Virus record (IMG/VR): IMGVR_UViG_3300048927_000157
Span: 1-64,000 of that record
Direction: 5' to 3' (one strand)
Origin: a virus
DNA length: 64,000 nt
Below the pieces are notes generated by a model. It saw nothing but the letters and a program-made list of their open reading frames with translations. It was not told where the DNA came from and searched no databases. The position numbers were made by a program, and so were the translations under genes. The first letter of the stretch is position 1, and the number at the start of each line of letters is the position of its first letter. Shown here in pieces: positions 10,565 through 25,826 of this stretch.

Positions 10565-10587
10565 CAATAATAATCAAAAGAGAAATA

Positions 10588-10971: not shown

Positions 10972-10982
10972 AAGTTAAAACA

Positions 10983-11579: not shown

Positions 11580-11936
11580 ATGGATAATAAAACAATGTAT
11601 TCTCAATTAGGTGAGATAAAAGTAATGGCTGATTTAGCTAGTAAAGGTTATCACATTTTTAATCAAGTGAGTGGTAAAGCACCTTTTGATTTGTTCGTCT
11701 ATAAAGATGGAGAGTCTAAAAGAGTATCTGTTAAATCAACTATCAAAGATCCAAATAGTTTGGGCAAATATAACATAGAGCTAAGAAGAATTAGATCAAA
11801 CAAAAATACTAATACTATCTATAAAATAGAAGTTGATGAGTTTGACATTTTAGCCATCTATATACAAAAAGAAGATAGAATTGTCTACCTAAATATAGAC
11901 GAAGTTATTGGTAAGACGGCTATCTTTGTAAAATAA
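11580..11936 (+). CDS. PD-(D/E)XK-family endonuclease-like protein
   Basis: GEIKVMADLASKGYHIF...APFDLFVYKDGESKRVSVKST shows the D...(S/E)-x-K core typical of small PD-(D/E)XK or Hjc-like nucleases. Confidence 0.55.
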   Translation: MDNKTMYSQLGEIKVMADLASKGYHIFNQVSGKAPFDLFVYKDGESKRVSVKSTIKDPNSLGKYNIELRRIRSNKNTNTIYKIEVDEFDILAIYIQKEDRIVYLNIDEVIGKTAIFVK

Positions 11937-11942
11937 CAATTC

Positions 11943-12023
11943 GGAGGATTGGCAGAATGGTATTGCAGCAGTCTTGAAAACTGTGACCCTCTGGGTCTGA
12001 GAGTTCGAATCTCTCATCCTCCT
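11943..12023 (+). tRNA. tRNA-Ser(TGA)
   Basis: GGAGGAT/ATCCTCC, GCAGT-CTTGAAA-ACTGT, long variable arm, GAGAG-TTCGAAT-CTCTC. Confidence 0.9.
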
Positions 12024-12031
12024 CATATTAT

Positions 12032-12115
12032 GGAAGTTAAATCTATCGGGGTATAGACTTTGTTTGCTAAACAAATGGGACCTCAGGGTCTGGGAATCGT
12101 GCTCTCTGGCTTCCT
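12032..12115 (+). tRNA. tRNA-Ser(GCT) with a non-canonical T loop
   Basis: GGAAGTT/GGCTTCC, D arm TCTA-TCGGGGTA-TAGA, TTTGT-TTGCTAA-ACAAA, long variable arm. The T arm GGGA-ATCGTGC-TCTC lacks TTC. Confidence 0.55.
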
Positions 12116-12132
12116 CACTTAAATTATTTTTT

Positions 12133-12381
12133 ATGAGTAGAACTTACAGAAGACCATCTCAACATAGATGGATGGGTGTAAATCACTTAAAAACAGTAAG
12201 AGATGGTAGTAGAACGAGACCATCTAAATTTTGTGAGCATAATGGTGGATGCAATATTTGTGAGGGCAATAGAATGCATAAACATCAGAAACAGAGAACA
12301 TTAACACAGGAGATAGACCTATTTAACGAAGAGGAATACTGGATGTTTTTCGAGGATGAATACTGGGTTTATTTCTTTTAA
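12133..12381 (+). CDS. small basic protein with Cys/His cluster and aromatic-acidic tail
   Basis: Track ORF trimmed to MSRTYRRPSQHR... Contains CEHNGGCNICEGNRMHKH. The original start lay inside tRNA-Ser. Confidence 0.5.
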   Translation: MSRTYRRPSQHRWMGVNHLKTVRDGSRTRPSKFCEHNGGCNICEGNRMHKHQKQRTLTQEIDLFNEEEYWMFFEDEYWVYFF

Positions 12382-12412
12382 CAAAACTTTAACTAATAAT
12401 TTCTATTAGAAA

Positions 12413-12446
12413 TTTGCATATGTCAAAAACATTTTGTATATTTGCA
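12413..12446 (+). promoter_or_regulatory. phage consensus promoter
   Basis: TTTGCATATGTCAAAAACATTTTGTATATTTGCA, with upstream AACAAAACTTTAAC. Confidence 0.7.
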
Positions 12447-12463
12447 GAAGTAAAAATTTAAAC

Positions 12464-12553
12464 ATGACAACAACTAGACAACATATTGAGATAACTATTG
12501 GCTGCCAAGGGCAATCAACAGGGATTAGTTTGTCTGATGTCATCTATGATTAG
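12464..12553 (+). CDS. 29-codon ORF, or a short RNA, between promoter and terminator
   Basis: MTTTRQHIEITIGCQGQSTGISLSDVIYD with a TAG stop. Same cassette layout as 8279-8518. Confidence 0.3.
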   Translation: MTTTRQHIEITIGCQGQSTGISLSDVIYD

Positions 12554-12583
12554 ACAAATCAAATTTATTCTTCATAAATTTTA

Positions 12584-12628
12584 ATCCCTTGTGAATCCTC
12601 AACCGACTTTGCAGGGGATTTTTTATTT
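12584..12628 (+). terminator. rho-independent terminator
   Basis: ATCCCTTG...CAGGGGAT followed by TTTTTATTTT. Confidence 0.6.
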
Positions 12629-12629
12629 T

Positions 12630-12700
12630 GCCTCATTAGTATAATGGTATTATAGCTGCTTTGTAACCAGTAGATGTAGGTTCGATTCCTACATGAGGCT
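12630..12700 (+). tRNA. tRNA-Thr(TGT)
   Basis: GCCTCAT/ATGAGGC, loop TTTGTAA, GTAGG-TTCGATT-CCTAC. CCA is encoded. Confidence 0.8.
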
Positions 12701-12706
12701 CCAAAT

Positions 12707-12777
12707 GTGCTGTTGGTCGAGTGGTTAGACACTGCTCTGCAAAAGCAGGTACACTGGTTCGAATCCAGTACAGCACT
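12707..12777 (+). tRNA. tRNA-Cys(GCA)
   Basis: GTGCTGT/ACAGCAC, CTGCT-CTGCAAA-AGCAG, ACTGG-TTCGAAT-CCAGT. Confidence 0.9.
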
Positions 12778-12783
12778 CTAAAC

Positions 12784-12855
12784 AGACCTATCGTACAACG
12801 GTTAGTACACCTGACTTTGACTCAGGGTATCTAGGTTCGAATCCTAGTAGGTCTA
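12784..12855 (+). tRNA. tRNA-Gln(TTG)
   Basis: AGACCTA/TAGGTCT, CCTGA-CTTTGAC-TCAGG, CTAGG-TTCGAAT-CCTAG. Confidence 0.9.
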
Positions 12856-12877
12856 CAATGTTAAAGTTTGTTAAAAA

Positions 12878-12910
12878 CTTGCATATGTGAAAAAGTTTTT
12901 TTATCTTTGT
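12878..12910 (+). promoter_or_regulatory. phage consensus promoter
   Basis: CTTGCATATGTGAAAAAGTTTTTTTATCTTTGT. Confidence 0.6.
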
Positions 12911-12926
12911 AAAATTAATATCACAA

Positions 12927-13685
12927 ATGATACAAAAAAAATTTTATACAGAAAAAGAAGGAAGAGATCCAAATATCTACTTAGGTATTGATGAAAGTCA
13001 CATTCCTATTGAGTATGTAAAAGGAATATTTAGTGATGCAGGAAATGTCTACACTGATGACCCATTATGGGGAGAAGTACAATTTATAGTAACAGAAGAT
13101 GAAAAATCTTTAATACTGGTAACTACTAATCCTAACAGTTATGTAACAAAAGAAGATTTACAAAGCACTGATGTTTGGCATAAAATAGGATTTGCCTTTC
13201 CAGAGTATCAGGAGTTCACAAACTGGAGAAGTATCCAGGAATCCTTTGACTTAACTCCATTAGGTATATTGCTTAAAAGGTATAAAGCAGGAGAAACAGG
13301 TCTTTTAGAGTACGAAGAAAAGAAGTTTAATGATAAGGGTGAGTACATGAGGATTTATAGATCTTTTGATACAAGACCTCATCCAACAACTCCAGATGTT
13401 AGGGATACATTAAGAAGACACATTAATTTTGTGTATGCTGATGAACCCACTACAATGTGGCAGGACAGAGAAATGATTGTTAAGAGTAATACTAATAACA
13501 TCATGGAGCTTCTAAATTTAGAAGTTAAACCTCAGATTGATACATTGGCAGCAAATGGATTATTAAAGGTTTCAGAAGACCAAGAAAATAAAATTCAATT
13601 TATAATGGTCCCTAGTATGGGTAAACTCCAACTAGAATTTGATGAAACAATAGAAGATTTCTTCGTAACTAAAATAGATAAATAA
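12927..13685 (+). CDS. hypothetical protein
   Basis: 252-aa ORF following a promoter. No motif recognised. Confidence 0.65.
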   Translation: MIQKKFYTEKEGRDPNIYLGIDESHIPIEYVKGIFSDAGNVYTDDPLWGEVQFIVTEDEKSLILVTTNPNSYVTKEDLQSTDVWHKIGFAFPEYQEFTNWRSIQESFDLTPLGILLKRYKAGETGLLEYEEKKFNDKGEYMRIYRSFDTRPHPTTPDVRDTLRRHINFVYADEPTTMWQDREMIVKSNTNNIMELLNLEVKPQIDTLAANGLLKVSEDQENKIQFIMVPSMGKLQLEFDETIEDFFVTKIDK

Positions 13686-13922
13686 ATGAGTAAAACATTA
13701 GGACAAAAAAGAATTGGTGATTTCAACCCTTCAGGTGAAGGAGTAATTGATGGAATTAAACAAAGAGCTATTGAGCTTTTCGACTACATTAATGATAATG
13801 TGACAGCAGATTTAAATCCAGATGAAGCTTCTGAAATTTTGAGTTTGAAAACTTTAGCTTTGAGACTTGTAGAAGATGCAGCCATGAAAGGAGTGAAATC
13901 TTACATTCACTACAAAAAATAA
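13686..13922 (+). CDS. hypothetical protein
   Basis: The ORF abuts the previous stop. A hairpin ACCAGG-GAAA-CCTGGT follows it. Confidence 0.55.
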   Translation: MSKTLGQKRIGDFNPSGEGVIDGIKQRAIELFDYINDNVTADLNPDEASEILSLKTLALRLVEDAAMKGVKSYIHYKK

Positions 13923-13947
13923 AACATACCAGGGAAACCTGGTTTAA

Positions 13948-14021
13948 CTCCAGTTAGCTCAGTCTGGTAGAGCACTTCTCTGATAAGGAAGTTGTCATAG
14001 GTTCAAATCCTATACTGGAGA
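13948..14021 (+). tRNA. tRNA-Ile(GAT)
   Basis: CTCCAGT/ACTGGAG, GCTC-AGTCTGGTA-GAGC, CTTCT-CTGATAA-GGAAG, ATAGG-TTCAAAT-CCTAT. Confidence 0.9.
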
Positions 14022-14118
14022 CAAATAATAGTTGCCCACAAAACTTTCTACTTATGGACGGATGTCTATTAGGTGCACGAATCACTTTAATGTGAGAGTA
14101 GTTTGTCTATTATTAATT

Positions 14119-14190
14119 GCAGAATTCGTATAGGGGTTAATACTTCTGACTTCCAATCAGAAGACGTGAGTTCGAGTCTCACATTCTGCA
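14119..14190 (+). tRNA. tRNA-Gly(TCC)
   Basis: GCAGAAT/ATTCTGC, TCTGA-CTTCCAA-TCAGA, GTGAG-TTCGAGT-CTCAC. Confidence 0.9.
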
Positions 14191-14204
14191 CAAAATAAAA
14201 AACA

Positions 14205-14513
14205 ATGGATAGCTTATACTACGAATACAAAGATGTTTATGACACTTCAATGAAACAAATTCAAAACCTATTATTAATAGATTTGAAGCTTTCAGCATCA
14301 GGTAATACTCCAAAGGATTATATGCCACTTCACTCTGAAGATATAAAGTTTGAAGGAGATGTATTGAAGTCAATAAAGGTAAGACAAATGCCATTCTTAA
14401 TAAGTCCAAAGTTTGTTGACCAAGTAGATAATTTGTTAGGGTTAGCAAGATGGGCAAAGGAAAAAATGGAAAAAGAGCATATTAATGGGATTAGATATTC
14501 TACCTTACCATAA
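14205..14513 (+). CDS. hypothetical protein
   Basis: Co-directional ORF. The antisense ORF 14179..14457 is discounted. Confidence 0.55.
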   Translation: MDSLYYEYKDVYDTSMKQIQNLLLIDLKLSASGNTPKDYMPLHSEDIKFEGDVLKSIKVRQMPFLISPKFVDQVDNLLGLARWAKEKMEKEHINGIRYSTLP

Positions 14514-14514
14514 T

Positions 14515-14757
14515 ATGGCTGAAGTAAAAATTACAAATAAAGAAAAGCCTACTACATTCTTTGGGTTTAAAAGTAGACACTTTAAACTCTTAACAGATTT
14601 GTATTGGGTAGTAGATGTAAATTTTGAATCTGATACTAATTTTTATAACTATGTATGGCAAGGATTCAACCCAGAAATTTGGGAACTTAAAAATAGAAAT
14701 TATGTCCTTATAAAAGGACAACCCTATAGGGAATATTTATCAAGCAGAAAATTTTAA
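14515..14757 (+). CDS. hypothetical protein
   Basis: Track ORF trimmed to MAEVKITNKEK..., starting 1 nt after the previous stop. Confidence 0.55.
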   Translation: MAEVKITNKEKPTTFFGFKSRHFKLLTDLYWVVDVNFESDTNFYNYVWQGFNPEIWELKNRNYVLIKGQPYREYLSSRKF

Positions 14758-14777
14758 AATCAAAAAATAAAAGTAAA

Positions 14778-15200
14778 ATGGAATCAAAAATCAGAGAAGA
14801 CTATGTAAAAGCTTTAAAAGCAAAAGATGCAGTAACAAAGAGCACACTATCACTTTTAATTAGTGCAGTGGATAATGAAAAGATTGCTCTTAGAAGAGAT
14901 TTAACAGTAGATGAAGTTACCAAACTTATCTCAAGGGAAATAAAGAAAAGGAATCAATCTATTGAAGCCTACACCCTTTCCAAGAGAATTGATCTTGCTG
15001 TTAAGGAAGAATCAGAATTAAAAGTTCTTGAGTCTTACCTACCTCAGGCTTTAACTTATCCTGAATTAATCTCTTTGGTTAGACTAACTAAAGCAACTAA
15101 CCCAGGAATCCATGAAGGTAAACTATTTGGTTTAATCAACAAGGAATGTAAAGGTGTTACAAAAGCAGAGGAAATTAAAAAAGCAATAGCTGAAGCTTAA
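14778..15200 (+). CDS. GatB/YqeY-domain protein
   Basis: IREDYVKALKAKD...TLSLLISAV...EVTKLISREIKKRNQSIEAY...ELKVLESYLPQ follows the YqeY family pattern. Confidence 0.8.
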   Translation: MESKIREDYVKALKAKDAVTKSTLSLLISAVDNEKIALRRDLTVDEVTKLISREIKKRNQSIEAYTLSKRIDLAVKEESELKVLESYLPQALTYPELISLVRLTKATNPGIHEGKLFGLINKECKGVTKAEEIKKAIAEA

Positions 15201-15592
15201 TGAAAGTTATTATTGCAGGAGGAAGAGAGTTCAATAATTATGGACTTGTTAAAACCAAGTGTGATTACTTTCTAAAGAATCATGGTGACATCGAAATAGT
15301 TTCAGGCAGATGTTCTACGGGAATAAAAACATTCACAACATCAGACGGTATTAACGTATTTGGTGCAGATGGTCTCGGAGAATTATATGCTGCCGAAAAC
15401 AATTATAAAGTTCTACCCTATCCAGCCGATTGGAAAATGCATGGTAAAGCAGCAGGACCGATCAGAAATGAGCAAATGGCTCAGGAAGCTCATGTGCTTA
15501 TAGCTTTCTGGGACGGGATTAGCAAAGGAACAAAAGGAATGATAGATTATATGAAAAGTATGGGTAAACCAGTACGAGTAGTGTACTACTGA
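15200..15592 (+). CDS. SLOG-family (DUF2493-like) protein
   Basis: MKVIIAGGR...VSGRCSTG..GADGLGELYA...PADWKMHGKAAGPIRNEQM...LIAFWDGISKGTKGMI. Confidence 0.65.
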   Translation: MKVIIAGGREFNNYGLVKTKCDYFLKNHGDIEIVSGRCSTGIKTFTTSDGINVFGADGLGELYAAENNYKVLPYPADWKMHGKAAGPIRNEQMAQEAHVLIAFWDGISKGTKGMIDYMKSMGKPVRVVYY

Positions 15593-15648
15593 TAAACTTC
15601 GGGATAGTTTTGTATCTTTCAACCCCGTAAATAAAAGATACTTTATAT

Positions 15649-15721
15649 GGTGGTATTATTGTAGTGGTTAGCATGTTAGACTGTGACTCTGACGGGAAGG
15701 GTTCGAATCCCTTATATCACC
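15649..15721 (+). tRNA. tRNA-His(GTG) with encoded G-1
   Basis: G-1 plus GTGGTAT/ATATCAC and discriminator C, TTAGA-CTGTGAC-TCTGA, AAGGG-TTCGAAT-CCCTT. Confidence 0.85.
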
Positions 15722-15744
15722 CAAACTACAAGAAGGTAGATTAG

Positions 15745-15790
15745 ATGTTGTTAGTATGTGAAGTCTTATATTAACAACATTTTTATTTTA
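15745..15790 (+). terminator. rho-independent terminator
   Basis: ATGTTGTTA...TAACAACAT followed by TTTTTATTTT. Confidence 0.65.
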
Positions 15791-15891
15791 AAAAACATTA
15801 TGAGTTGGATTTATAAAATACCAGTCGAGAACATTGTTTTCATTGTCTTCTCAATCATCGAAAAACTTTAACAAAATTTTAACAAAAAATA

Positions 15892-15925
15892 TTTGCATAT
15901 TAAGAAAAGTTTTTATATCTTTGCA
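15892..15925 (+). promoter_or_regulatory. phage consensus promoter with upstream TTTAACAAAATTTTAAC element
   Basis: TTTGCATATTAAGAAAAGTTTTTATATCTTTGCA. The upstream element lies at 15866-15883. Confidence 0.7.
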
Positions 15926-15962
15926 AAGTAATAATTAATCAATAACCAAAAATCATAATAAG

Positions 15963-17639
15963 ATGTTCGACAGCAAACAAAAAAGTTTATTTGAAGTTAC
16001 TTCAAAAAACAAACCAGCAACATCTGCATTCGTTAATGCAGCTTTAAAGAAAGGAGCAGAAACACTATCGGGTAACGGAGCCCTAAAATATTCCTCAACA
16101 GGATCAGCATTAGTTGACCAGTTCGGAGTTATGGGTAAGTTCAAAGCACCAAGATCTTTCCAGGATATCAGTAGAGATGCTGAATTACTTTGGGCAGACG
16201 ATAAGTGGGATGCAGTAGCATTCTCTGTCTTCGTGAGAATGATCTCAAGACAGACTATGTATCAGGATGGTACAATGACTTCTGTTTCACAAAAAGGAGG
16301 AGAGCTTAGACATGAAGGTATCATGAGATTCTTATGGTTACACTTCAAGGATGAGAAAACTTTCTGGACTAACGTAGGTCTAATGATCTCAGCAGGATCA
16401 TGGAAAGATATCTTCACGATGCTTTCTTATGACTTAGTACACCACGGGTGGAATGGAAGAAAGTTAAACTGGAAAAAGTTTGGAGAACTTATCCTTTCAG
16501 GATTAGAAAATTCAAACACTAGTGACTTAATTAAAAAGTATCTTCCACAGATCAAAGCTAAATCTTCTTGCAAAACTGTTGAGGCTCAGGCTGATACAAT
16601 CATTGCTAAATGGATTTGCTCATTAGTATTCGGTACAAAAGAAAATGCAGGATCTACTTACAAACAGTACAGAAAATTAAAAACTTCTGGTACTGCTCAT
16701 GAATGGCAGAAGTTAATTTCTACAAAGCAATTTGATAGAATTGATTTCAACAAAGTTCATGGTAGAGCTCTTTCTAAACTTGTACAAGGTAAGTTCTTGT
16801 TCAACCAAAAACTTTCTGACAAGTATGCAGAGTGGATCAAGGCTCCAGAAACTAAAGAAGTTAAATACACAGGTTTCGTTCACGAGTTGTTCGAAGGTCT
16901 AGGTAAGAGAGCTAGAAGAAAAGTTACTTCTCAAGAGGAAGAAACTATTAACAAGCAATTTGCTACTCTTGTTAAAAAAGGTGGAGAGACTGGTCAAACT
17001 AGTCTAATTGTAGTAAGAGATACATCAGGATCTATGAGCTCACCAGCTACTGGAACTACGATGAGCTGCTACGATATTGCTAAGGCACTTGCCCTTTACT
17101 TCTCTGAATTCTTAACAGGTAGATTTGCAGATGCATGGATCGAGTTCAACTCAGATGCTCAGATGCATACTTGGAAAGGTCAGACTCCAGTAGACAAGTG
17201 GAAAAACGATCACTCAAGTTACGTTGGTGGTACTAACTTCCAATCAGTAATTAACCTTTTCGTTAATCTGAAGCAAAAAGGAATTTCAGAAGAAGATTTC
17301 CCAACAGGAATCTTATGTATCTCTGATAGTGAATTCAACCCAACTTCGTTAGGTAAAACTAACGTTGAAACTGCAAAGGAAACTTTGAGAAGAGCTGGGT
17401 TCTCTAAAGAGTATGTGGATAACTTTGTGATTGTTCTTTGGAACCTACAGTCAGGATACTACGGTAGAGGGACTGGAGAGAAGTTTGAAACTTATGGAGA
17501 CGTTAAAAACGTATTCTATTTCAGTGGATACTCTGCTACCACTGTAGGATTCTTGACTAACACCAAGATCAAAACAGCAGAAGAATTAGTAAGAGAGGCA
17601 TTGTCTCAGGAGCTGATTCAAAGAGTAGAAGTTCTATAA
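15963..17639 (+). CDS. DUF2828-like protein: helical N-terminal domain plus C-terminal vWA/MIDAS domain (Ro60-like architecture)
   Basis: N-terminal ...LSGNGALKYSSTGSALVDQFG... (remembered DUF2828 signature). A vWA MIDAS motif VVRDTSGSMSS sits near residue 350. 558 aa. Confidence 0.7.
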   Translation: MFDSKQKSLFEVTSKNKPATSAFVNAALKKGAETLSGNGALKYSSTGSALVDQFGVMGKFKAPRSFQDISRDAELLWADDKWDAVAFSVFVRMISRQTMYQDGTMTSVSQKGGELRHEGIMRFLWLHFKDEKTFWTNVGLMISAGSWKDIFTMLSYDLVHHGWNGRKLNWKKFGELILSGLENSNTSDLIKKYLPQIKAKSSCKTVEAQADTIIAKWICSLVFGTKENAGSTYKQYRKLKTSGTAHEWQKLISTKQFDRIDFNKVHGRALSKLVQGKFLFNQKLSDKYAEWIKAPETKEVKYTGFVHELFEGLGKRARRKVTSQEEETINKQFATLVKKGGETGQTSLIVVRDTSGSMSSPATGTTMSCYDIAKALALYFSEFLTGRFADAWIEFNSDAQMHTWKGQTPVDKWKNDHSSYVGGTNFQSVINLFVNLKQKGISEEDFPTGILCISDSEFNPTSLGKTNVETAKETLRRAGFSKEYVDNFVIVLWNLQSGYYGRGTGEKFETYGDVKNVFYFSGYSATTVGFLTNTKIKTAEELVREALSQELIQRVEVL

Positions 17640-17676
17640 GGTGAAAATCCTTTAACATAAAATTAACACTGCAAAA

Positions 17677-17710
17677 TTTGCATATCTCAAAAAGATTTTG
17701 TATCTTTGCA
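17677..17710 (+). promoter_or_regulatory. phage consensus promoter driving the tRNA-like array
   Basis: TTTGCATATCTCAAAAAGATTTTGTATCTTTGCA, with upstream TTTAACATAAAATTAAC. No ORF follows for about 1.06 kb. Confidence 0.7.
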
Positions 17711-17935
17711 GTGTTATTAATGAGGTTACTATCAGCAAATACACAACAAAAACATATAATTGATTCAAAAATAAGTAACGTAGAATGCAAAAGCACAGCC
17801 ATCTCTACACTTCGAGTCCTGTATGTGAGAAGTAAAATTGTATAGGAAGGTCTTGAGATGACTTTAAAAGCAAGCAGAGGATTAAAACCCTTGGTAACCT
17901 GTCTATAAAAACTCATACAGCAACTATAAAGCAAC

Positions 17936-18032
17936 GGTATCATAAACCCCAGTCAGAGGTTCGAATCCTCTCCTCCCAACAAAGTTAAATCTTAAAAAAT
18001 ACATCGGGAGGTAGTGAAGTGGTTATCACGGG
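17936..18032 (+). ncRNA. circularly permuted tRNA gene, initiator-like tRNA-Met(CAT): 3' half, 25-nt linker, 5' half
   Basis: 17936-17979 GGT-ATCATAA-ACCCC-AGTC-AGAGG-TTCGAAT-CCTCT-CCTCCCA-A; 18005-18032 CGGGAGG-TA-GTGA-AGTGGTTA-TCAC-G-GG. Joined, they give a 72-nt cloverleaf with a C1xA72 mismatch and anticodon stem GGGGT/ACCCC. Confidence 0.65.
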
Positions 18033-18085
18033 TAAAAGCAAAAAGTGAGTTTTGATAAAGTTTCATACAGCAAACACACAGTTAA

Positions 18086-18179
18086 GCATTGAAAGCCGTT
18101 GGTCGGGGGTTCGAGTCCTTCCTCCCAAACAAAGTTAAATCTAGAAATCTTTGGGAGTAGCTCAGTTGGTAGAGCAACG
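18086..18179 (+). ncRNA. circularly permuted tRNA gene, anticodon TGA with short variable arm: 3' half, 21-nt linker, 5' half
   Basis: 18086-18129 GC-ATTGAAA-GCCGT-TGGTC-GGGGG-TTCGAGT-CCTTC-CTCCCAA-A; 18151-18179 TTGGGAG-TA-GCTC-AGTTGGTA-GAGC-A-ACG. Joined, every stem is fully paired (73 nt; G-U pairs in the T stem). Confidence 0.65.
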
Positions 18180-18497
18180 TTAAAACAAAAAATGAAACTT
18201 GAATAAGAACAGTAACAGCAAATTTTATCACAGAAACTACCATCTTAAGTTTTATGGTGTAACAGGTAGCACACTGGGAATAAGAATCCCAGAGGTTTTG
18301 GTTCGAATCCATCTTAGATAATCTGTTCTGACAAGATTGCTAACAGCAAATTAAACAAACACTTGAATTTTAATCAAACCTAGTTTAGTATGCAATCTGA
18401 AAAAATTACCTACAGCAAACTAAAACAAAATCAAAATAGGAAATTTGAAAAACAAAAGGTAATTTGATAAAGCTACACACAGCAAATAAACGTTTAT

Positions 18498-18599
18498 AAA
18501 TTTTTATTTGGATTAAAAACGATTTGGGTTCGAATCCCGAAGCCCTTGACCGAGGCACTTGGATGTGGAATATCGGTGTCAACAAGACCTGTAGCTTGT
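18498..18599 (+). ncRNA. degenerate permuted tRNA-like module (anticodon arm, T arm, closed helix, D-like hairpin)
   Basis: TTTTA-TTTGGAT-TAAAA (TGG loop), TTGGG-TTCGAAT-CCCGA, helix TTGACCGA/TCGG(TG)TCAA capped by a 19-nt loop, then CAAG-ACCTGTAG-CTTG. The geometry is imperfect. Confidence 0.3.
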
Positions 18600-18603
18600 A
18601 TTT

Positions 18604-18675
18604 GGTCCGTTCGTCTATCGGTGAGGACATTAGATTTTCGATCTAAGAAGATGGGTTCGATTCCCATACGGACTA
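18604..18675 (+). tRNA. tRNA-Glu(TTC)
   Basis: GGTCCGT/ACGGACT, TTAGA-TTTTCGA-TCTAA, ATGGG-TTCGATT-CCCAT. Confidence 0.9.
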
Positions 18676-18680
18676 CAATT

Positions 18681-18754
18681 GGTTCTTTAGCTCAACTAGG
18701 TAGAGCAGCAGTCTCTAAAACTGTGTGTTATGGGTTCGAATCCCATAAGAATCA
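18681..18754 (+). tRNA. amber suppressor tRNA, anticodon CTA
   Basis: GGTTCTT/AAGAATC, GCTC-AACTAGGTA-GAGC, GCAGT-CTCTAAA-ACTGT, GTGTT, ATGGG-TTCGAAT-CCCAT. The 7-nt loop has U33, CTA and A37. Confidence 0.85.
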
Positions 18755-18774
18755 CAACCAAAATTTTATACATT

Positions 18775-19134
18775 ATGAAAAAAGGAGACGAATTAGTAGG
18801 TTAGGTTGGAAATGAATTCCTAACTATTATTACAAGAGAAGACCTGAAACCAGGTTACAAATGTGTGCAAAGTGCACATGCATTGGCTGATTTTGCAGTC
18901 AAGTTTGAAGATGAATTTAAGCAGTGGCAGTTGGGTAGTAATTACCTGTGTTGCCTGGAAGCTTCGGAATCCAAAATTGAAAGGATACTCCACAGATTAG
19001 ATGACTTAAAAATTAAGTACCATAAATTCTTGGAACCTGATATCGGAAACCAAATGACAGCAGTAGCTGTTGAAGCAATCTCCAGAGAACAACATAAAAA
19101 ACTTTTTAAGAATTTACAACTAACATTAAATTAA
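18775..19134 (+). CDS. PTH2-like (peptidyl-tRNA hydrolase 2 family) protein with an in-frame TAG at codon 10
   Basis: ATG 18775, then MKKGDELVG-TAG(18802)-VGNEFLTIITREDLKPGYKCVQSAHA... The LTIITREDL..G.K.VQSAHA block matches the PTH2 N-terminus and lies upstream of the GTG (18865) used in the track. There is no in-frame start between 18805 and 18864. Confidence 0.5.
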
Positions 19135-19141
19135 AATTATC

Positions 19142-19417
19142 ATGAAAAAATTTGAGGCAATCAGACAAGCAATAAAAACATTATCAGAGGACCAAAAAAA
19201 ATACAAGCCTTTGAGAAAACCTTCTAACATTAAAGCAGATGACCCAGACTCTCCAGAATGGTATCAGCAAGCTGTTAGAAGTAACAAATATGAGCTAAGA
19301 CACTTATTCCAGGCTTACTCTGTACTGAAAGGAAAGCAAAGGCAGGAAACAAAAAGAAAGGAGATCTCCGAATCTTATGTAACTAAACTTGTGCAGCAGT
19401 ATGGAGACAATTTGTAA
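19142..19417 (+). CDS. hypothetical protein
   Basis: Co-directional ORF. No motif recognised. Confidence 0.55.
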   Translation: MKKFEAIRQAIKTLSEDQKKYKPLRKPSNIKADDPDSPEWYQQAVRSNKYELRHLFQAYSVLKGKQRQETKRKEISESYVTKLVQQYGDNL

Positions 19418-19649
19418 AAGTTCCAGGATAGTGTTCCACTTCAATAAGAAACACAATGAAGACAAAGATGTCCCAGCATGGGTGGTGAAGTGTAAAGGTG
19501 AGACGTACTATGTGGATCATTTAGATTCCAGGGTCGGCTTCACAACTAAGGAGACTCCAGACAACAGTCATACAAAAGGAAGTCTTCAGTTTAAAGGCTC
19601 ATTAAAAATTATTAAAGAAAACAACATGACTACTGCTCTTATTGAGTAG
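19401..19649 (+). CDS. hypothetical protein
   Basis: Track ORF 19389 trimmed to METICKSS... Ends in a tandem TAG TAG. Confidence 0.55.
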   Translation: METICKSSRIVFHFNKKHNEDKDVPAWVVKCKGETYYVDHLDSRVGFTTKETPDNSHTKGSLQFKGSLKIIKENNMTTALIE

Positions 19650-19827
19650 TAGTCTATTATAAGCAGAGTGTACCATTAGGTGTGGGTTTAGTGTGCAAGC
19701 TAAACGAAAGTTTGCTGCCGAGTAGAAAGAATTCAAAGTTACAAAGGAGTCATGACTGGAGTAATGAGAAGGGCAACTACAGAGTTTCAAACGGAAGTGG
19801 TTCGATTCCTCCTCTCTGCTCCAATAT

Positions 19828-19900
19828 TGCTACATGGAGAAATAGGTTACCTCGTCAGTCTCATAAGCTGAAGATCCAGGTTCGAGTCCTGGTGGAGCTA
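19828..19900 (+). tRNA. tRNA-Met(CAT)-like, weak acceptor stem
   Basis: TCAGT-CTCATAA-GCTGA and CCAGG-TTCGAGT-CCTGG are perfect. Acceptor TGCTACA/TGGAGCT pairs at only 5 of 7 positions. Alternative 5' strand TGCTCCA at 19817. Confidence 0.55.
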
Positions 19901-20089
19901 CTAATCCCTTGAAAGAGTTCAGCCTTTGAGTGAGGTGTGTAAGGTTAAATAACACTGGGCACGAGAGGTACTTTATGAGTTTTTGTGTTTAAAAAACTTA
20001 GGTTTGGTTGCAGTGTGCTGCCTTTCCCTTAAAAATGGAAGCAAGAAGTAAAAGAGGATATCAGCCTGATTAGCTTCACGTCCTCATTT

Positions 20090-20161
20090 CCTGATATGGT
20101 ATAGTGGCTATTACGTGACCCTCATAAAGTCAACAGCCAAGTTCGATTCTTGGTATCGGGA
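20090..20161 (+). tRNA. tRNA with CAT anticodon (elongator Met or Ile2)
   Basis: CCTGATA/TATCGGG, loop CTCATAA, CCAAG-TTCGATT-CTTGG. Confidence 0.8.
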
Positions 20162-20269
20162 CAAAAATAACTGAAGTAAAATAGAGTATCTGAGGAGTCC
20201 TTTTTAGGGGGTGTTGATACAGAGAGGGTAGCCCTGTTACAAGGGTGTAGTTTGAAAGTTATTTTATTT

Positions 20270-20342
20270 GCCCTCATAGCTCAACTGCATAGAGCAACTC
20301 CCTTCTAAGGTGTCGATACAGGTTGGAATCCTGTTGGGGGCT
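20270..20342 (+). tRNA. tRNA-Arg(TCT)
   Basis: GCCCTCA/TGGGGGC, GCTC-AACTGCATA-GAGC, loop CTTCTAA, ACAGG-TTGGAAT-CCTGT. Confidence 0.85.
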
Positions 20343-20355
20343 CAAAATTAAAATT

Positions 20356-20865
20356 ATGAATAATTGTTTGCACTGTGGTACAGAGACTACAAATCCAAAA
20401 TATTGTTGTAGGTCATGTTCTGCTAAGCATACAAATGTTAAATTTCCTAAAAAGAAATTAACTAGGACTTGTAGTAAGTGTAGCTCAGTTGTAAAATCTT
20501 ATAAACATAGTTTATGTGAATTCCATCATGAAGAATTAAAACAAACAAAGTATGAGGTTACAAAAAATTTAACTCTACAAGATTACTGGAATAAAAAATC
20601 ATTAGATGGTTTACATACTTCTTCAAAAAATGCACATATAAGACAGTTAGGTCGAACTAAATTTAAAGACCTTTTGAGAAAGCCTTGTGCTAATTGTGGG
20701 TATTCTAAACATGTGGAGTTATGTCATATTAAACCAATAAGGGATTTTAAACCAACTGATAAAGTAGACCTAGTCAATGCAAGAGATAATGTGATACAAC
20801 TTTGTCCAAACTGTCACTGGGAATTTGATAATGGATATTTAAAATTGTTAAGGCAATTATTATAA
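20356..20865 (+). CDS. HNH homing-type endonuclease
   Basis: N-terminal Cys clusters. C-terminal CANCGYSKHVELCHIKP...NVIQLCPNCHWEFDNG. Sits between two tRNA genes. The track start at 20323 is inside tRNA-Arg. Confidence 0.75.
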   Translation: MNNCLHCGTETTNPKYCCRSCSAKHTNVKFPKKKLTRTCSKCSSVVKSYKHSLCEFHHEELKQTKYEVTKNLTLQDYWNKKSLDGLHTSSKNAHIRQLGRTKFKDLLRKPCANCGYSKHVELCHIKPIRDFKPTDKVDLVNARDNVIQLCPNCHWEFDNGYLKLLRQLL

Positions 20866-20940
20866 GGCTTCTTAGCTCAGCCTGGTCAGAGCAGCTCCCT
20901 CATAAGGAGAAGGTCACAGGTTCAAATCCTGTAGGAGCCA
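20866..20940 (+). tRNA. tRNA-Met(CAT)
   Basis: GGCTTCT/AGGAGCC, GCTC-AGCCTGGTCA-GAGC, loop CTCATAA, ACAGG-TTCAAAT-CCTGT. Starts 1 nt after the HNH stop. Confidence 0.85.
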
Positions 20941-20956
20941 CATCAAAAATTTAAAA

Positions 20957-21241
20957 ATGAAACAAGAGAGATTAAATGAACTAGGATTTCATGTCCATGT
21001 GATAAAAAAAGAAACTCCTATGCTTGGAAAAGTAATATTCAGAAAAAAAGGATTTTCTCACGGGTGGGAACTTACTCTTCCTTATACAACACATCACGGA
21101 TCTTTTCTTGGGAATGACATCCAACTTACTTCCACACTATATAAAGTAACAGGAGACCAAAGAGAACTTTTAGTTCAAGTTAAAGGAGATCTTTCTGATG
21201 CAGCTATGGAAGAAATAATCACCAATGCAATAAGGGAGTAA
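20957..21241 (+). CDS. hypothetical protein
   Basis: Co-directional ORF. Confidence 0.55.
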   Translation: MKQERLNELGFHVHVIKKETPMLGKVIFRKKGFSHGWELTLPYTTHHGSFLGNDIQLTSTLYKVTGDQRELLVQVKGDLSDAAMEEIITNAIRE

Positions 21242-21714
21242 TGTACGAAGCAAGAAAATTTTCTCAGGAGAGTTACAATAAGTACAATGACTCTACAATC
21301 AATAAAGTAATCACTCACTTAGAATCATTAGGTTACAAAATAATCAGAAGAGATGAAACTTTCTCCCATGATTTAATCATTCAAAAAGCTGATGGACCAG
21401 AAGTATACGTTGAAGTAGAAGCAAGTGCTGCCTGGGAATTTACAACAAGGGACACTTACAAATATCCAAATGTTAACTTTCTTGGAAGAAAACAAAAGAT
21501 GCACATTGAACATCCCTTCATGTATATCATTGTCTGTGTAAAAACAGACTGGGCTTTAGCATGTGATTCTAATGTTATCTATAATACAGGAAGAAGAAAA
21601 GAGATTCATGTAAACTCTCAATTCAAGAAAGGCTCTGATGAAGTCTTCTATCTTCCAAAAGATAAAGTATCATTTTTCAAATTAAATCTTGATGGGTCCA
21701 AACAGACACAATAA
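21241..21714 (+). CDS. hypothetical protein (possible PD-(D/E)XK-like core)
   Basis: ...SHDLIIQKADGPEVYVEVEAS... is weakly nuclease-like. Otherwise unassigned. Confidence 0.55.
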   Translation: MYEARKFSQESYNKYNDSTINKVITHLESLGYKIIRRDETFSHDLIIQKADGPEVYVEVEASAAWEFTTRDTYKYPNVNFLGRKQKMHIEHPFMYIIVCVKTDWALACDSNVIYNTGRRKEIHVNSQFKKGSDEVFYLPKDKVSFFKLNLDGSKQTQ

Positions 21715-21847
21715 AAGAAAACAGAAGAAAGGTTGTGGATGCAAACTCTGCAAACCTCATAAAGGAGTTTGGGCTCCTTTCCATAAAGAAAAATTCAGAG
21801 CCAAAATGAAGGCTCAGTTACAAGACATTACCAATCCAATCTGGTAA
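21692..21847 (+). CDS. small basic Cys-containing protein
   Basis: MGPNRHNKRKQKKGCGCKLCKPHKGVW..., 51 aa, not in the track (<60 aa). A terminator follows. Confidence 0.4.
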   Translation: MGPNRHNKRKQKKGCGCKLCKPHKGVWAPFHKEKFRAKMKAQLQDITNPIW

Positions 21848-21859
21848 TTTTCATTTTGT

Positions 21860-21889
21860 CCTATCTGCACTAACAGGTAGGATTTTTTA
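21860..21889 (+). terminator. rho-independent terminator
   Basis: CCTATCTG-CACTAA-CAGGTAGG followed by ATTTTTT. Confidence 0.7.
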
Positions 21890-21896
21890 TTAGATA

Positions 21897-21929
21897 CTTG
21901 CACATAACAAAAAAATTTCTTATCTTTGT
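21897..21929 (+). promoter_or_regulatory. phage consensus promoter
   Basis: CTTGCACATAACAAAAAAATTTCTTATCTTTGT. Confidence 0.6.
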
Positions 21930-21949
21930 GATATAAAAATCAATAATAC

Positions 21950-23869
21950 ATGGCAACATTTCAGGGACCTGGAATCAAGGTCTTAAAACAATATCAAGGG
22001 CAGGACGGTAAAACTTATGTGCAGTTAAGCACAGGAGAAACCCTGGCAACCGATTCTATGGACTACCAGGATTACTATGCAGAAGGTCTTCTTTACGGTG
22101 AAGATGAAAGAGGAAATTTCTATCCTCAGGAAGGAGCACACGATATACTGAAACAATATCAGCAGCTTACCCAACAAAACAGTTTTGAAAATTATATGAA
22201 GCCTTACTTTGAGGATGAGATGACTGGAGCAATAGCCAGAGGTCTTGGTCAAAGTATGGACAAGTTCTGGGATGTGAATCCTTCTTATAAACAAAACTAT
22301 GATAATCAGATCCAGCAGCAACTGGTAGATCAATATCTGAAAAACAATCCAAGACAGGATGATGAAGCTAGAGGAGCCTACTTCAACAGAATAAATAAAA
22401 TGCTTCCAAATGAAGTAAGAGACTTTATCATGGACTCAGGAAACCCTGGAGTAGAACCTGGATACTGGGCAGATTTCAGAAGAGGTCTTTACACGACTCT
22501 TGCAGACCAAATGGGTGGAGGAGATCAGCAGCTTATCAGAAGTATAAACCAAGATCCTAACCTAACCAATAGTGAAAGAAACAGATTAAGCTATGACATT
22601 CAAGAAGGCAGCTATGGTGGGATGAGAAAGGTAGGAGATAAGCTTGGAATACTTGCTCCCCTGGCAGTTCCAGCAAAGGTTGTGCAGTCTGCTTACATGA
22701 ATGACTATCAATTTGAGGATGCCATAGCTGGTAGAAAGAACAATGCAACTTTGGCTGAAGATATCTTAACTGACCCACTAACTTATGCAGGTCTTGGAAT
22801 AGCTGAGAATGCTGGAAAGATTTCAGGAGCAGTAGGTAGAGTTGCCAGTAAGATCCCAACTGAAGCAGAAGCAATAGCAGCCATCGACAGGTTTGGTAAT
22901 GCCAATCTTCCTAATGCTTACAAGTACAATCCATTTGCTTTCAGACCAAAATCAAATGCTTTCTACAGACAGCTTGAAGGAGATGCAGTAGGAGCCCTGG
23001 ATGAAACTATGGGACTAGTGAAAGGATCAGACTATGGTCCAGCCTCATTTACCAAAGGGTCTCTTTACACAGGAAACAATACTCCAGAGATGTTGATTGA
23101 AGCCAGAAACCAAGCAAGTAACTTTACTCCTGTCGATGATCTTATTTCTGATGCCAACAATGTTTACCTATCAAACAGAGATGTAGACATTCTAGGACCA
23201 GATGTATCCAGATACGAGAGAAACTGGCTATCAGGTTACAAAAGAATGGGACAGCCTAATGGAGTAGAAGTAGATCTAGGAGGAGGGCAAAAGATGAGAA
23301 GAATGGCTTCTAATCCAAATGATATTTCGGTCTACCAAAGAGTACCAGAGTGGGACCCGATAGACGAGATGGAATATCTAAAGGCAGAAGAGGTAAGGCT
23401 CCAAAAGTACGAACATGAAGGAGAGGATTTCTATAACTTCTATGCCAACATGCCCTCATCAAAACTTAAAGCAGGAAAGGCTTATCATGCATTAGATAAA
23501 TTCATTCCAGTAGGAGGTAAGCTAAGAGAACCAGGCTCACTAAGCTGGGACTCCTTCCAGAACATTCTAAAGAAAGCCCAGGAAGGTAAAAAGTTTGAAG
23601 CCTCTCAGGATGGGTTTATCCCAATGAATGGAATGAGCCAGAATGAGAAAAAGGCATATCCTTTCTTTGGGAGCCAGGAAAAGATGGACGAAGTTCTAGG
23701 AGAGCTTTACCCTAAACTAGATGAGTTAGGATTTGACAGACCTAGGCTGCTGGAAGACAGTAATGACAAATTCAAGTCGATTAGAAAGAGAGCCAATTTT
23801 CCAAACATTGTACTGAAGAAAAACTATGAACAGGGAGGAATGATCCTGCCTGACTGGTTGTTCGAATAA
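21950..23869 (+). CDS. large hypothetical protein (639 aa)
   Basis: Long uninterrupted ORF with its own promoter. No motif recognised. Antisense ORFs inside it are discounted. Confidence 0.75.
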   Translation: MATFQGPGIKVLKQYQGQDGKTYVQLSTGETLATDSMDYQDYYAEGLLYGEDERGNFYPQEGAHDILKQYQQLTQQNSFENYMKPYFEDEMTGAIARGLGQSMDKFWDVNPSYKQNYDNQIQQQLVDQYLKNNPRQDDEARGAYFNRINKMLPNEVRDFIMDSGNPGVEPGYWADFRRGLYTTLADQMGGGDQQLIRSINQDPNLTNSERNRLSYDIQEGSYGGMRKVGDKLGILAPLAVPAKVVQSAYMNDYQFEDAIAGRKNNATLAEDILTDPLTYAGLGIAENAGKISGAVGRVASKIPTEAEAIAAIDRFGNANLPNAYKYNPFAFRPKSNAFYRQLEGDAVGALDETMGLVKGSDYGPASFTKGSLYTGNNTPEMLIEARNQASNFTPVDDLISDANNVYLSNRDVDILGPDVSRYERNWLSGYKRMGQPNGVEVDLGGGQKMRRMASNPNDISVYQRVPEWDPIDEMEYLKAEEVRLQKYEHEGEDFYNFYANMPSSKLKAGKAYHALDKFIPVGGKLREPGSLSWDSFQNILKKAQEGKKFEASQDGFIPMNGMSQNEKKAYPFFGSQEKMDEVLGELYPKLDELGFDRPRLLEDSNDKFKSIRKRANFPNIVLKKNYEQGGMILPDWLFE

Positions 23870-24272
23870 TATTTATACTTAAGCCCTGGGGAGAGATCCC
23901 TGGGGTTTTCTATTTTATTACTGATACCCCTGTATTATTTAAGGTCGAATTTTAATGGTAAGTGATACCCTGATAGCATTTAGTGAAACCCCATTATATG
24001 TGTACTTCGAGTACCCATATAGAAAACAACCCCTCCCCCTCTTCAGACTTTTTGGCACACCCCCATGAAATGAAGTGACTTTTTGGCAGGGATTTTTATC
24101 CAGTCTAAATAAATTTAATTTTCTGAGTTTTTATTTTTTGGGTTTTCTGGTTTTATCTGTGCTCAGTGGTAGCCGTGAGAGGTGACAATGTGACAGCCTG
24201 AAAAGTCCATTTTGACATTCTGACAAAAACAAATGTGATGACTAATTTATATTTAGTCTAAATAATAATTTT

Positions 24273-24534
24273 AATTGCAAATTGATTTTAACAAATTTTA
24301 ACTAAATTGCTATTGTGTATTCCAAATTGCCTTTAAATTGCTTATCTCTTCATAGGTGGATACGTAACACATAATAATTATTTGAGGCTTTATTTGAGCT
24401 TATAAACTATGTTTTTAACACTTTAATTTGTCAGAATTGAGTGAAGCCGTTATTTAATTGCTGGATAGTATGCAATGAATAGTTAAAAAAGCAAAAGTTT
24501 AAACTAAATAGTTTGGTGATGTCATTTTAATTGC
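24273..24534 (+). repeat. six same-orientation (A/T)AATTGC repeats in an ORF-free region (iteron-like)
   Basis: AATTGC at 24273, 24305, 24325, 24336, 24456 and 24529. Confidence 0.5.
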
Positions 24535-25090
24535 TTAAAGGGATCACAAATAAAAAAATCGGGTCAATCATACTGACAAAACAAAAGAGGTACACAAATA
24601 CACATACACACTAAACACTCTCACGGGGTCGGGTCGGCACAGGCTAAAAGCCTGTTTATAGGGGTTTACACTGTGTTGGATTCGGTTTAAACATTATCAA
24701 ATCAATAATAAATCAATTGTTTTGTTAAATTATTTACATTGAAGGCTCGATTTTCCACGGGGTTAATACTTTAATGTAACAGAAATTAATTGTTTTCATT
24801 ACGAAATTCATAATTATTATTTTTAATTGGGTTTTATGTCGGTGAAAAGTGGGGTGTATCCCTTTCGAGGGGTGGGAATGTATAATTGTTTCTGAACTTT
24901 CAATAATTACTGAAACTTTGATAAATTACCCTTGTAAAGCCACACATCTAATATTTTACATATTAACACACTGATAATCAATGAGTTATTAAAAACAAAT
25001 GGCAGATTGATAAAAATATGTTCCCTTTTATGCTGGTTTACATTATCAATGCTATATCTTTGCACCACTAACAAACAAATACATATTATC

Positions 25091-25282
25091 ATGACTACAT
25101 TTAAAAGCTATTCCGATTTATTACAGGCTATTCCAGAGGCTCAGTATTGTGACATTGAATTTAACCAATTAACGGGCTTATGGGAGTACAATAAACAGGA
25201 ATCTAAAACAGAGTTGTTTTTATTGGGGCTTGCTTCCATTGTGTTAACTCTTATTAGTATTACTATTTATACACTGTGTTAA
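25091..25282 (+). CDS. small membrane protein
   Basis: MTTFKSYSDLL... with a C-terminal hydrophobic helix LFLLGLASIVLTLISITIYTL. A -7 element TATATCTTTGCA lies at 25053-25064. Confidence 0.45.
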   Translation: MTTFKSYSDLLQAIPEAQYCDIEFNQLTGLWEYNKQESKTELFLLGLASIVLTLISITIYTLC

Positions 25283-25304
25283 ACACTATCTGAAACAAAA
25301 CCTT

Positions 25305-25336
25305 TAAGGCTTGCATTAACTTGTAAGCCTTTTTTA
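25305..25336 (+). terminator. rho-independent terminator
   Basis: TAAGGCTT...AAGCCTT followed by TTTTAT. Confidence 0.6.
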
Positions 25337-25826
25337 TGTTTTAAGGGGTAAATAAGCCTGTTTAATGGCTTCAATCTATTTAGTAAGGTGTTTATACTAC
25401 TTTAAAAAGATAATTGATTTTAGAGGGGTTTATGTGTGTTTTAATGTATTCTATTGTATTGTATTATAACTACTCTTTTATTTCAGTAAGGATTTGCCCA
25501 TTTTTCAGGGTTATTTAATCACATTCAACACTCACAACATAAGAGCCAAAAAATAAATGAAATTTTTCTCACTGATTTTCAATCACTTACATAAAAAAGA
25601 TAAAATTTTTTCAAATCTATTTTTAAAAATTGAGGTCCCTATTCATGGGCTTTTCCAAAGGTTTTTCTTCTGTAACACCGATAAACAGGGCATTTGTTTG
25701 GTATTACTTAATTTCACATCTTTGCAATGTCAAAACGACAGAGCAACAGTTTTTAAACATCAAAACCACGGGAACACTGATTAATACAGGGTTTTTAAAA
25801 ATAAATGAAAATTTTTTTACATTTTA

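Follow-up and report, generated by a model that had tools for sequence, protein, structure and literature searches.

Does a phage that encodes an amber-suppressor tRNA also decode UAG in its own genes? This question is raised by a gene at 18681-18754 (+ strand) of the stretch of 64,000 nucleotides analyzed here (positions 1 to 64,000 of the IMG/VR virus record IMGVR_UViG_3300048927_000157; hereafter the window), which specifies a 74-nt tRNA with the anticodon CUA.

Structure and conservation of the CUA tRNA

The initial annotation described a canonical 74-nt cloverleaf with the anticodon CTA, and this description was borne out by ARAGORN, by Rfam and by folding, as well as by an alignment of six orthologues. 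ARAGORN called a tRNA with anticodon cta at 18681-18755 (+); the tag 'Pyl' attached to this call is merely the program's name for a CTA anticodon. In a search of the whole window, the Rfam family RF00005 (gathering score 29 bits) matched 18681-18754 over its complete length (model 1-71/71) with 67.2 bits (E = 1.9e-12), ranking fourth among the 23 Rfam tRNA matches in the window. The covariance-model alignment, in which posteriors were maximal at all positions, comprises an acceptor stem GGUUCUU/AAGAAUC, a D arm GCUC/GAGC, an anticodon stem GCAGU/ACUGU and a T arm AUGGG/CCCAU, and it keeps CUA at 34-36 rather than moving the anticodon elsewhere. The features of an elongator tRNA are present throughout: a full cloverleaf, a 7-nt anticodon loop (C-U-C-U-A-A-A) with U33, CUA at 34-36 and a purine, A37, at its 3' side, and a GTTCGAATC-type T loop. 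The discriminator is A73, position 20 is U, the D loop has 9 nt, the anticodon stem 5 bp and the short variable loop 5 nt. The minimum free energy fold is likewise the cloverleaf (-19.8 kcal/mol, z = -2.1). The gene has no encoded CCA, and CAACC comes next.

Hallmarks of pylT are a short D loop, a 6-bp anticodon stem, a 3-nt variable loop, an atypical T loop and pylS/pylBCD nearby. Identity as tRNA-Pyl was ruled out by the ordinary cloverleaf, the 5-bp anticodon stem and the canonical T loop, and no Pyl genes were among the Pfam matches of the scanned window ORFs.

Relatives of the phage were collected by a homologue search with the neighbouring Ro-like protein. The suppressor was present in six of the seven genomes of the clade (the window, L012, L013, L091, L093 and L094), the Ro-like proteins of the suppressor-bearing relatives being 93-74 % identical to that of the window. 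In L092 (Ro-like protein 84 % identical) the suppressor is missing, tRNA-Glu is kept and there is no obvious replacement; the suppressor is therefore dispensable at least in this member of the clade. In the six-sequence alignment, 98.4 % of stem cells were paired, and double-sided compensatory changes were found at 9 of the 21 stem pairs, including six of the seven acceptor pairs. The covariation score was 0.463 versus 0.183 for shuffled alignments (0 of 500 shuffles attained the observed value), and in slid controls covariation did not exceed 0.163, with at most 55 % of cells paired. No variation was seen in the anticodon loop (CTCTAAA), in the T loop or at A73. The spacer between tRNA-Glu and the suppressor, which measures from 4 nt to nearly 290 nt, was freely rearranged among the genomes. 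Paired and covarying stems together with a fixed anticodon loop amid a variable spacer argue for a maintained working tRNA and not for a decaying copy, and comparison of the six diverged genomes indicates a functional gene that is under purifying selection on structure and anticodon.

These data bear directly on the proposal that the gene has no function and is a pseudogene or neutral relic which came by its CTA through anticodon drift and persists solely by linkage to the array. Such a relic would agree with the loss in L092, and with the findings, described below, that no phage gene requires the suppressor and that TAG-terminated genes are unadapted to it. We nevertheless consider it improbable, given that all helices were kept via nine double-compensated pairs though the neighbouring protein is down to 74-76 % identity, that anticodon loop, T loop and A73 contrast in their invariance with the spacer, and that the suppressor orthologues score 67-69 bits with Rfam, near the top of the array.

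The gene for tRNA-Glu(UUC) (18604-18675, +; ARAGORN and Rfam) ends 5 nt upstream of the suppressor and is its upstream neighbour in all six suppressor-bearing genomes, for which reason the two tRNAs are probably co-transcribed. About 4-5 nt separate them in the window and 4 nt in L091; the other four genomes carry an insert of ~160-290 nt before the suppressor (L012 10069-10229; L013 12426-12710; L093 12626-12840; L094 13283-13567). A T-arm-like and a D-arm-like stretch can be discerned in this insert by eye, and nothing was called in it by ARAGORN or by Rfam at E <= 1. In a distant clade (Ro-like protein ~55 % identical), ARAGORN called an identical 81-nt tRNA(cta) gene, with the anticodon at position 38 by this call only, in L021 (4001-4081), L022 (4869-4949), L025 (6473-6553), L026 (6434-6514) and L047 (3167-3247). 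It adjoins an 88-nt tRNA-Lys, and sister contigs are without it; many tRNAs of this distant clade are 83-92 nt long, which could represent insertions or introns.

Affiliation of the phage and use of TAG in its genes

The window has a GC content of 35 % and is densely coding on the + strand. Its proteins match exactly the 160,171-bp Logan contig SRR35925735_585701, the two sequences being identical over their overlap, and genes from both window ends fit only a circular map of about 160.14 kb. To the left of the window lie genes for a large terminase (TerL; PHROG 6681, E = 2.5e-81), a portal protein (PHROG 6547) and a 566-aa virion protein. Identity of TerL is 41 % with its counterpart in csAssE-Sib, 37 % with those of Cellulophaga phages phi17:2 and phi4:1, and ~21 % with those of crAss-like phages; by these identities the phage is crAss-related, in line with the reference to crAss-like phages in the initial annotation. 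Yutin et al. (2021, PMC7886860) assign phage phi17:2 to Epsilon, a group of crAss-like phages with genomes of ~150 kb, and from the relation to this branch the host is probably a member of the Bacteroidota. The closest IMG/VR relative, 3300048926_000088 (159,132 bp), shows 93-100 % amino-acid identity, and a second one, 3300049033_000018 (157,140 bp), about 74-85 %. No near-identical phage was found in INPHARED by megablast of the region, and a scan of JGI metagenomes matched relatives only at 73 % or less.

Several other features of the genome were recorded. Cargo that is unusual in a phage (L087 1-5908 and L097 17036-20597) includes an ABC transporter (permease and ATPase), a 604-aa OmpA-domain protein, a GroEL-like Cpn60, and NAMPT with a phosphoribosyltransferase and an ADP-ribosylglycohydrolase. 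The thymidylate synthases of the window's genome (L087 10001-11113, 370 aa) and of its relative (L095 2848-4059, 403 aa) share 72 % identity; amid an otherwise 93-100 % identity this points to local mosaicism or gene replacement. At 3217-3725, where the late module (- strand) and the early module (+ strand) diverge, an intergenic region coincides both with the minimum of the cumulative GC skew (about 4000) and with the start of 3300049033_000018; it may be an origin or terminus, or no more than the point at which transcription switches. Downstream of a 639-aa ORF (21950-23869), ~2.4 kb at 23870-26300 contain no ORF in six frames, and reading TAG as sense does not rescue any. This segment, for which no Rfam family matched, aligns to five relatives at 68-87 % identity with many indels and is hence a conserved non-coding block.

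A CUA tRNA had been read in the initial annotation as a sign of stop-codon recoding. Whether the phage genes use TAG as a sense codon was evaluated on a composite genome consisting of the window, its own flanks (L004, L001 and L097) and a relative, with the remainder walked in 10-kb steps. The late module was read in relatives (L011, L048, L050, L052, L055, L057 and their partners), namely the 93-100 % identical one and one of ~84 % identity, with the TerL, portal, 405-aa and 566-aa genes taken from the window's own assembly; the metabolic block was read in L087. The pieces share sequence at two places, next to TerL and at the ABC-transporter genes, and together they close into the complete circle of ~160 kb. 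For genomes larger than 100 kb, a gain in coding coverage of at least 5 % has been used as the criterion of recoding (PMC10879173), and TGA read as sense on the same sequence served as control. In the window, coding regions cover 86.2 % of the sequence under the standard code; this figure becomes 88.7 % when TAG, and 89.0 % when TGA, is translated. The corresponding values were 89.3 %, 90.8 % and 91.1 % for 90,962 bp of the window's genome (+1.5 points for TAG, +1.8 for TGA), and 96.6 %, 96.3 % and 96.6 % for 80,854 bp of the relative that include the whole late module (-0.2 points for TAG, 0.0 for TGA). Re-prediction with TAG as sense over the whole genome, the check that the initial annotation had proposed, thus yielded no gain in coding density beyond the TGA control, and its statement that the code is not reassigned wholesale agrees with the coverage of the whole composite.

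Across the composite genome, no in-frame TAG was found in late, structural or other ORFs of at least 50 aa. TerL (706 aa), the portal protein (936 aa), a 566-aa structural protein and the giant ORFs were uninterrupted in two to three genomes, the full series of uninterrupted late-module ORFs being 706, 936, 405, 566, 768, 615, 566, 750, 2221, 464, 1369, 848, 2017, 765 and 2022 aa. No lysis genes were identified by name, and zero late-module ORFs of at least 50 aa were broken by TAG. TAG joined adjacent in-frame segments (at least 35 codons) 19 times in the window, as compared with 25 times for TGA and 40 times for TAA, and only 2 of the 19 TAG-joined pairs sit on the coding strand. A 59-codon extension past the TAG of 27770-28378 was rejected, as the 57 aa encoded at 28385-28558 form an independent ORF that starts with an ATG at 28385. 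Likewise rejected was a fusion, by readthrough of the TAG that ends the DUF932 gene (30764-31657), to the ORF at 31682-32056, since L054, the closest relative, has a 1-nt deletion immediately behind this TAG. An apparent collapse of ~6 kb without ORF in L050/L051, where TAG as sense had seemed better, was actually one stop-free 2221-aa ORF running off the end of the locus; substitutions between the two relatives show perfect 3-periodicity in a single frame, that of the 2221-aa ORF. No Pfam families of release factor (RF2) or aminoacyl-tRNA synthetases were found in the scanned window ORFs, a set that left out some ORFs, e.g. 6325-8005 and 9722-10205, or among the precomputed Pfam matches of the fetched loci. 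The phage genes use the standard code, without reassignment.

TAG serves these genes as an ordinary stop. The greedy ORF set of the window ends in TAA 93 times, TGA 17 times and TAG 14 times, and over ~200 ORFs the shares were 81.5 % TAA, 10 % TGA and 8.5 % TAG (17 of 200), in keeping with the TAA majority and TAG minority noted initially; the individual TAG stops then listed (8003, the TAGTAG at 19644-19649, 28376, 32813, 35463 and 35830) are all present. The TAGs at 8003, 19644 and 32813 are TAA in relatives, 1-nt indels immediately follow the TAGs at 31657 and 19649 among relatives, and in late genes TAG and TAA are exchanged between two relatives. TAGs of late genes have a back-up TAA or TAG 0-1 codons on or overlap with the next start. 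Over the TAG-terminated genes as a set, back-up stops were not enriched, the next stop being no nearer than in other genes (Fisher p = 0.44, Mann-Whitney p = 0.83), and in 5 of the 17 the next stop is again TAG. This absence of adaptation argues for weak or cheap suppression. No conserved readthrough extension of TAG-terminated genes was found among the relatives compared. TAG is thus an exchangeable plain terminator in about 8.5 % of genes, with no conserved programmed readthrough, and the earlier proposal that the phage suppresses stops of its own genes partially or under temporal control finds no support in stops that exchange, are followed by indels and lack conserved extensions.

Recoding of the code-15 type, partial or limited to late and lysis genes and timed by expression of the suppressor, would be attractive on general grounds, since the phage is crAss-related, shares low GC (35 %) and a predominance of TAA stops with the relatives of recoded phages (bioRxiv 10.1101/2021.08.26.457843), and carries its suppressor among early/middle genes, a position also seen in recoded crAss-like phages. 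It is rendered very improbable by the lack of in-frame TAG in ORFs of at least 50 aa, by a TAG-sense gain not above the TGA control, by TAG stops that exchange with TAA and are followed by indels, with both same-frame neighbours explained, and by the lack of RF2 or synthetase families in the Pfam scans run and in the Pfam matches of the fetched loci. The inference of recoding from the CUA tRNA, attractive as it was, is herewith corrected. Alternative coding does not follow from the mere presence of a CUA tRNA in a phage related to crAss, and genes of this phage should therefore be called with table 11.

The tRNA array, charging and possible roles of the suppressor

Together, we regard it as likely that the gene encodes a bona fide, expressed-type CUA elongator tRNA and represents a suppressor without reassignment, housed in the large tRNA array of a phage that has a circular genome of ~160 kb, uses the standard code and is akin to the Epsilon branch. 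The array comprises 24 tRNA genes (8611-20941, +), 23 called by ARAGORN plus a tRNA-Phe from Rfam. It provides about one tRNA per amino acid, mostly with U34 or G34 anticodons, and contains three CAU tRNAs and the suppressor. tRNA-Phe(GAA) (8815-8889, +) scored 54.5 bits with Rfam and was missed by ARAGORN; conversely, tRNA-Tyr(GTA) (9031-9114, +) was called by ARAGORN and is not in the Rfam gathering list. No tRNA-Asp was called in the window; in relatives, one is located at the head of the array. Scattered through the array are small ORFs and genes of homing endonucleases (HNH, PDDEXK_5 and DHFR according to the gene table); homing-endonuclease-type genes in and around it are SegE GIY-YIG, HNH and PDDEXK_5, at 5892-6350, 10983-11495 and 11580-11936. 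Relatives have LAGLIDADG genes at other array positions. These arrangements suggest active endonuclease turnover in the array.

Genes for the maintenance of tRNAs are numerous. The suppressor and most other tRNAs of the array lack an encoded CCA. This end may be supplied by a nucleotidyltransferase with a PolyA_pol head domain (45585-46364, +; Pfam PF01743, 70.9 bits), whose family also comprises CCA-adding enzymes. An RNA ligase (40450-41736), an RlaP nucleotidyltransferase (49770-50912) and a polynucleotide kinase-phosphatase (52534-53460) form part of a tRNA maturation and repair kit. Inside the array, a YqeY-like protein with a tRNA-binding domain of the GatB-tail type (14778-15200, +; Pfam PF09424, 95.2 bits) is conserved in the relatives L091, L092 and L094; its gene and one for a YAcAr SLOG-domain protein lie back to back (14778-15592), and both are kept in relatives. 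A YqeY domain is described as aiding the binding of tRNA-Gln by Deinococcus GlnRS (PMC1865053), and any link of the YqeY-like protein to charging of the suppressor is speculative. The Ro-like/DUF7788 'RNA-binding protein' gene (15963-17639) is followed, in the region 18097-18321, by a sub-threshold match to the Y-RNA-like family YrlA (36.2 bits, E = 9e-5). YrlA also matched in the relatives L092 (4531-4593, 39.9 bits) and L013 (11949-12075, 35.5 bits, full model). A weak 'tRNA-Leu(aag)' just downstream of the match in the window (18248-18321, 32.8 bits) is a doubtful tRNA call. By sequence, the Ro-like gene and the Y-RNA-like element resemble an Rsr/Y-RNA module carried by the phage, about 0.4 kb before the suppressor.

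The amino acid carried by the suppressor was considered from its identity elements. A parent tRNA within the array was sought and dismissed, the best paralogue being only 63 % identical; the window's own tRNA-Arg(UCU) (20270-20343, +) is dissimilar to the suppressor (56 % identity). The closest database tRNAs are Crassvirales tRNA-Arg(UCU), those of cr111_1 (MT774387) and of the gut phage scaffold MT835482 being 76-78 % identical over the whole suppressor tRNA. Both kinds of tRNA agree almost completely in the acceptor stem (GGTTCYN/NRGAATC), the D and T arms and A73, whereas the anticodon loop is CUUCUAA in tRNA-Arg(UCU) and CUCUAAA in the suppressor, the 31-39 pair differs, and position 20 is A versus U. 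ArgRS identity requires A20 and C35. The suppressor has U20 and U35 in their place, which makes its charging uncertain despite the Arg-like closest matches. CUA suppressors of E. coli are mostly charged with Gln or Lys, because GlnRS and LysRS both key on U35; Lys identity includes A73, and Gln identity includes U1-A72, G2-C71, G3-C70 and G73 (PMC1483225). A73 of the suppressor fits Lys, and the Gln acceptor set (U1-A72, G2-C71, G3-C70, G73) is missing from it. A single change, G36A, separates its anticodon arm from that of tRNA-Gln(CUG) of Prevotellaceae/Paludibacteraceae, and another, C35U, from that of tRNA-Trp(CCA) found elsewhere in the Bacteroidota. Since the identical arm was found with Cys, Trp, Gln, Leu, Met and Arg anticodons, it does not settle the identity; the same tRNA with CTA had no match in 185,579 species genomes. 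By analogy with the E. coli suppressors, the putative amino acid is Gln or Lys.

A different proposal holds that the RNA is made but is no translational suppressor, acting instead as a decoy or sponge for an anticodon nuclease or a tRNA-directed defence, or reading another codon through a modified C34. Strong tRNA-targeting pressure is indeed suggested by the RNA ligase, the polynucleotide kinase-phosphatase, RlaP, the CCA-type nucleotidyltransferase, the Ro-like and Y-RNA-like pair and YqeY, and the uncertain charging of a tRNA that resembles tRNA-Arg(UCU) yet lacks the Arg identity bases would be in keeping with it. Against this, U33, A37, a canonical T loop and D arm make the molecule a normal elongator tRNA in every respect, and the three anticodon bases are strictly conserved, as predicted for a tRNA that reads codons. 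We know of no nuclease documented as targeting a CUA tRNA. A decoy, sponge or modified tRNA appears unlikely, to much the same degree as a relic.

For a working CUA suppressor in a standard-code phage, the following course can be envisaged. The tRNA would be transcribed together with tRNA-Glu, would receive its CCA end from the phage PolyA_pol/CCA-type nucleotidyltransferase or from a host enzyme, and would be aminoacylated by a host synthetase keyed on U35 (GlnRS or LysRS); once charged, it would compete with release factor 1 at UAG. Since no phage gene needs UAG decoded, the only possible translational effect is readthrough at terminators, which would be limited to those of host mRNAs and of roughly 17-20 phage genes. 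Retention of the suppressor suggests some benefit, such as host-directed readthrough, anti-defence or tolerance of nonsense mutations, rather than recoded late genes, and its conservation through substantial divergence without in-frame TAG fits a standing benefit better than a fleeting intermediate. More specifically, and as a tentative idea that we hold to be possible but rather doubtful, the suppressor may be selected for a job apart from decoding the phage's own genes, either as a UAG-readthrough weapon against host mRNAs or as a counter to a host activity that acts at UAG codons or that creates nonsense codons. Such a job would be compatible with a tRNA selected in six genomes, the lack of any phage gene in need of it, and the investment of the genome in tRNA maintenance. 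If true, host-directed readthrough of UAG-terminated mRNAs would amount to host shut-off or to disabled defence proteins, and a long-lived suppressor without recoding would be a stable strategy and not a brief intermediate toward a new code.

Comparison with known systems

Phages that have reassigned TAG to Gln (code 15; crAss-like and Lak phages) have been validated by metaproteomics (PMC9523058). The phage described here shares with them a tRNA-Sup(CUA), the same broad assemblage, and location of the tRNA on the standard-code early/replication side. Code-15 phages differ in having in-frame TAG in structural and lysis genes and a density gain of at least 5-10 %, neither of which is seen here. 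Suppressor tRNAs of recoded phages are often, though not always, adjoined by theta/HDV-like ribozymes (PMC10879173). No match to a ribozyme family was obtained with Rfam 15 at E <= 1 in 8000-27000 of the window, a negative that extends to theta/HDV-like ribozymes next to the tRNA as far as Rfam models them. There is no recoded sister lineage among the three genomes whose late genes were read, a comparison that leaves out the late regions of L091, L093 and L094; the late modules of 3300048926_000088 and 3300049033_000018 use the standard code. Judging from the sample and contig names of relatives, samples of the clade appear to be environmental rather than from the human gut.

A tandem tRNA-Sup(CUA) of the Xanthomonas jumbo phage XacN1 (AP018399), which has a very large tRNA set, has the same CUCUAAA loop and T arm as the suppressor (alignment over 58 % of a 161-nt query, 74 % identity). 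It differs by an encoded CCA and by other acceptor and anticodon stems, and it belongs to an unrelated phage and host phylum. To our knowledge, no recoding has been reported for XacN1.

The closest parallels are suppressors without reassignment. These have been described in crAss-like phages, where they were termed pre-emergence or incipient change and where anti-defence or host-directed readthrough was suggested for them in general terms (Yutin et al. 2021, PMC7886860), and a standard-code Agate phage with a TGA suppressor has been reported (Borges 2021, bioRxiv 10.1101/2021.08.26.457843). As in these cases, a tRNA with a stop anticodon is found here in a low-GC, TAA-dominated, crAss-related phage of standard code that shows no trace of reassignment. 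The suppressor tRNA described here reveals no new mechanism; its clade, modestly useful for learning how phage recoding starts and what suppressors do before or without it, offers a reasonable comparative and experimental system with its loss variant L092 and its rich set of tRNA-processing and repair genes. The published pre-emergence cases are presented as recent, each a point mutation of the anticodon in one genome or a fresh acquisition. Unlike them, the suppressor of this clade appears to be old, with nine compensated pairs in six genomes and a fixed anticodon. A suppressor without recoding is thus an already described state, and what sets this clade apart, as judged from the alignment of its members, is the persistence of the suppressor through their divergence.
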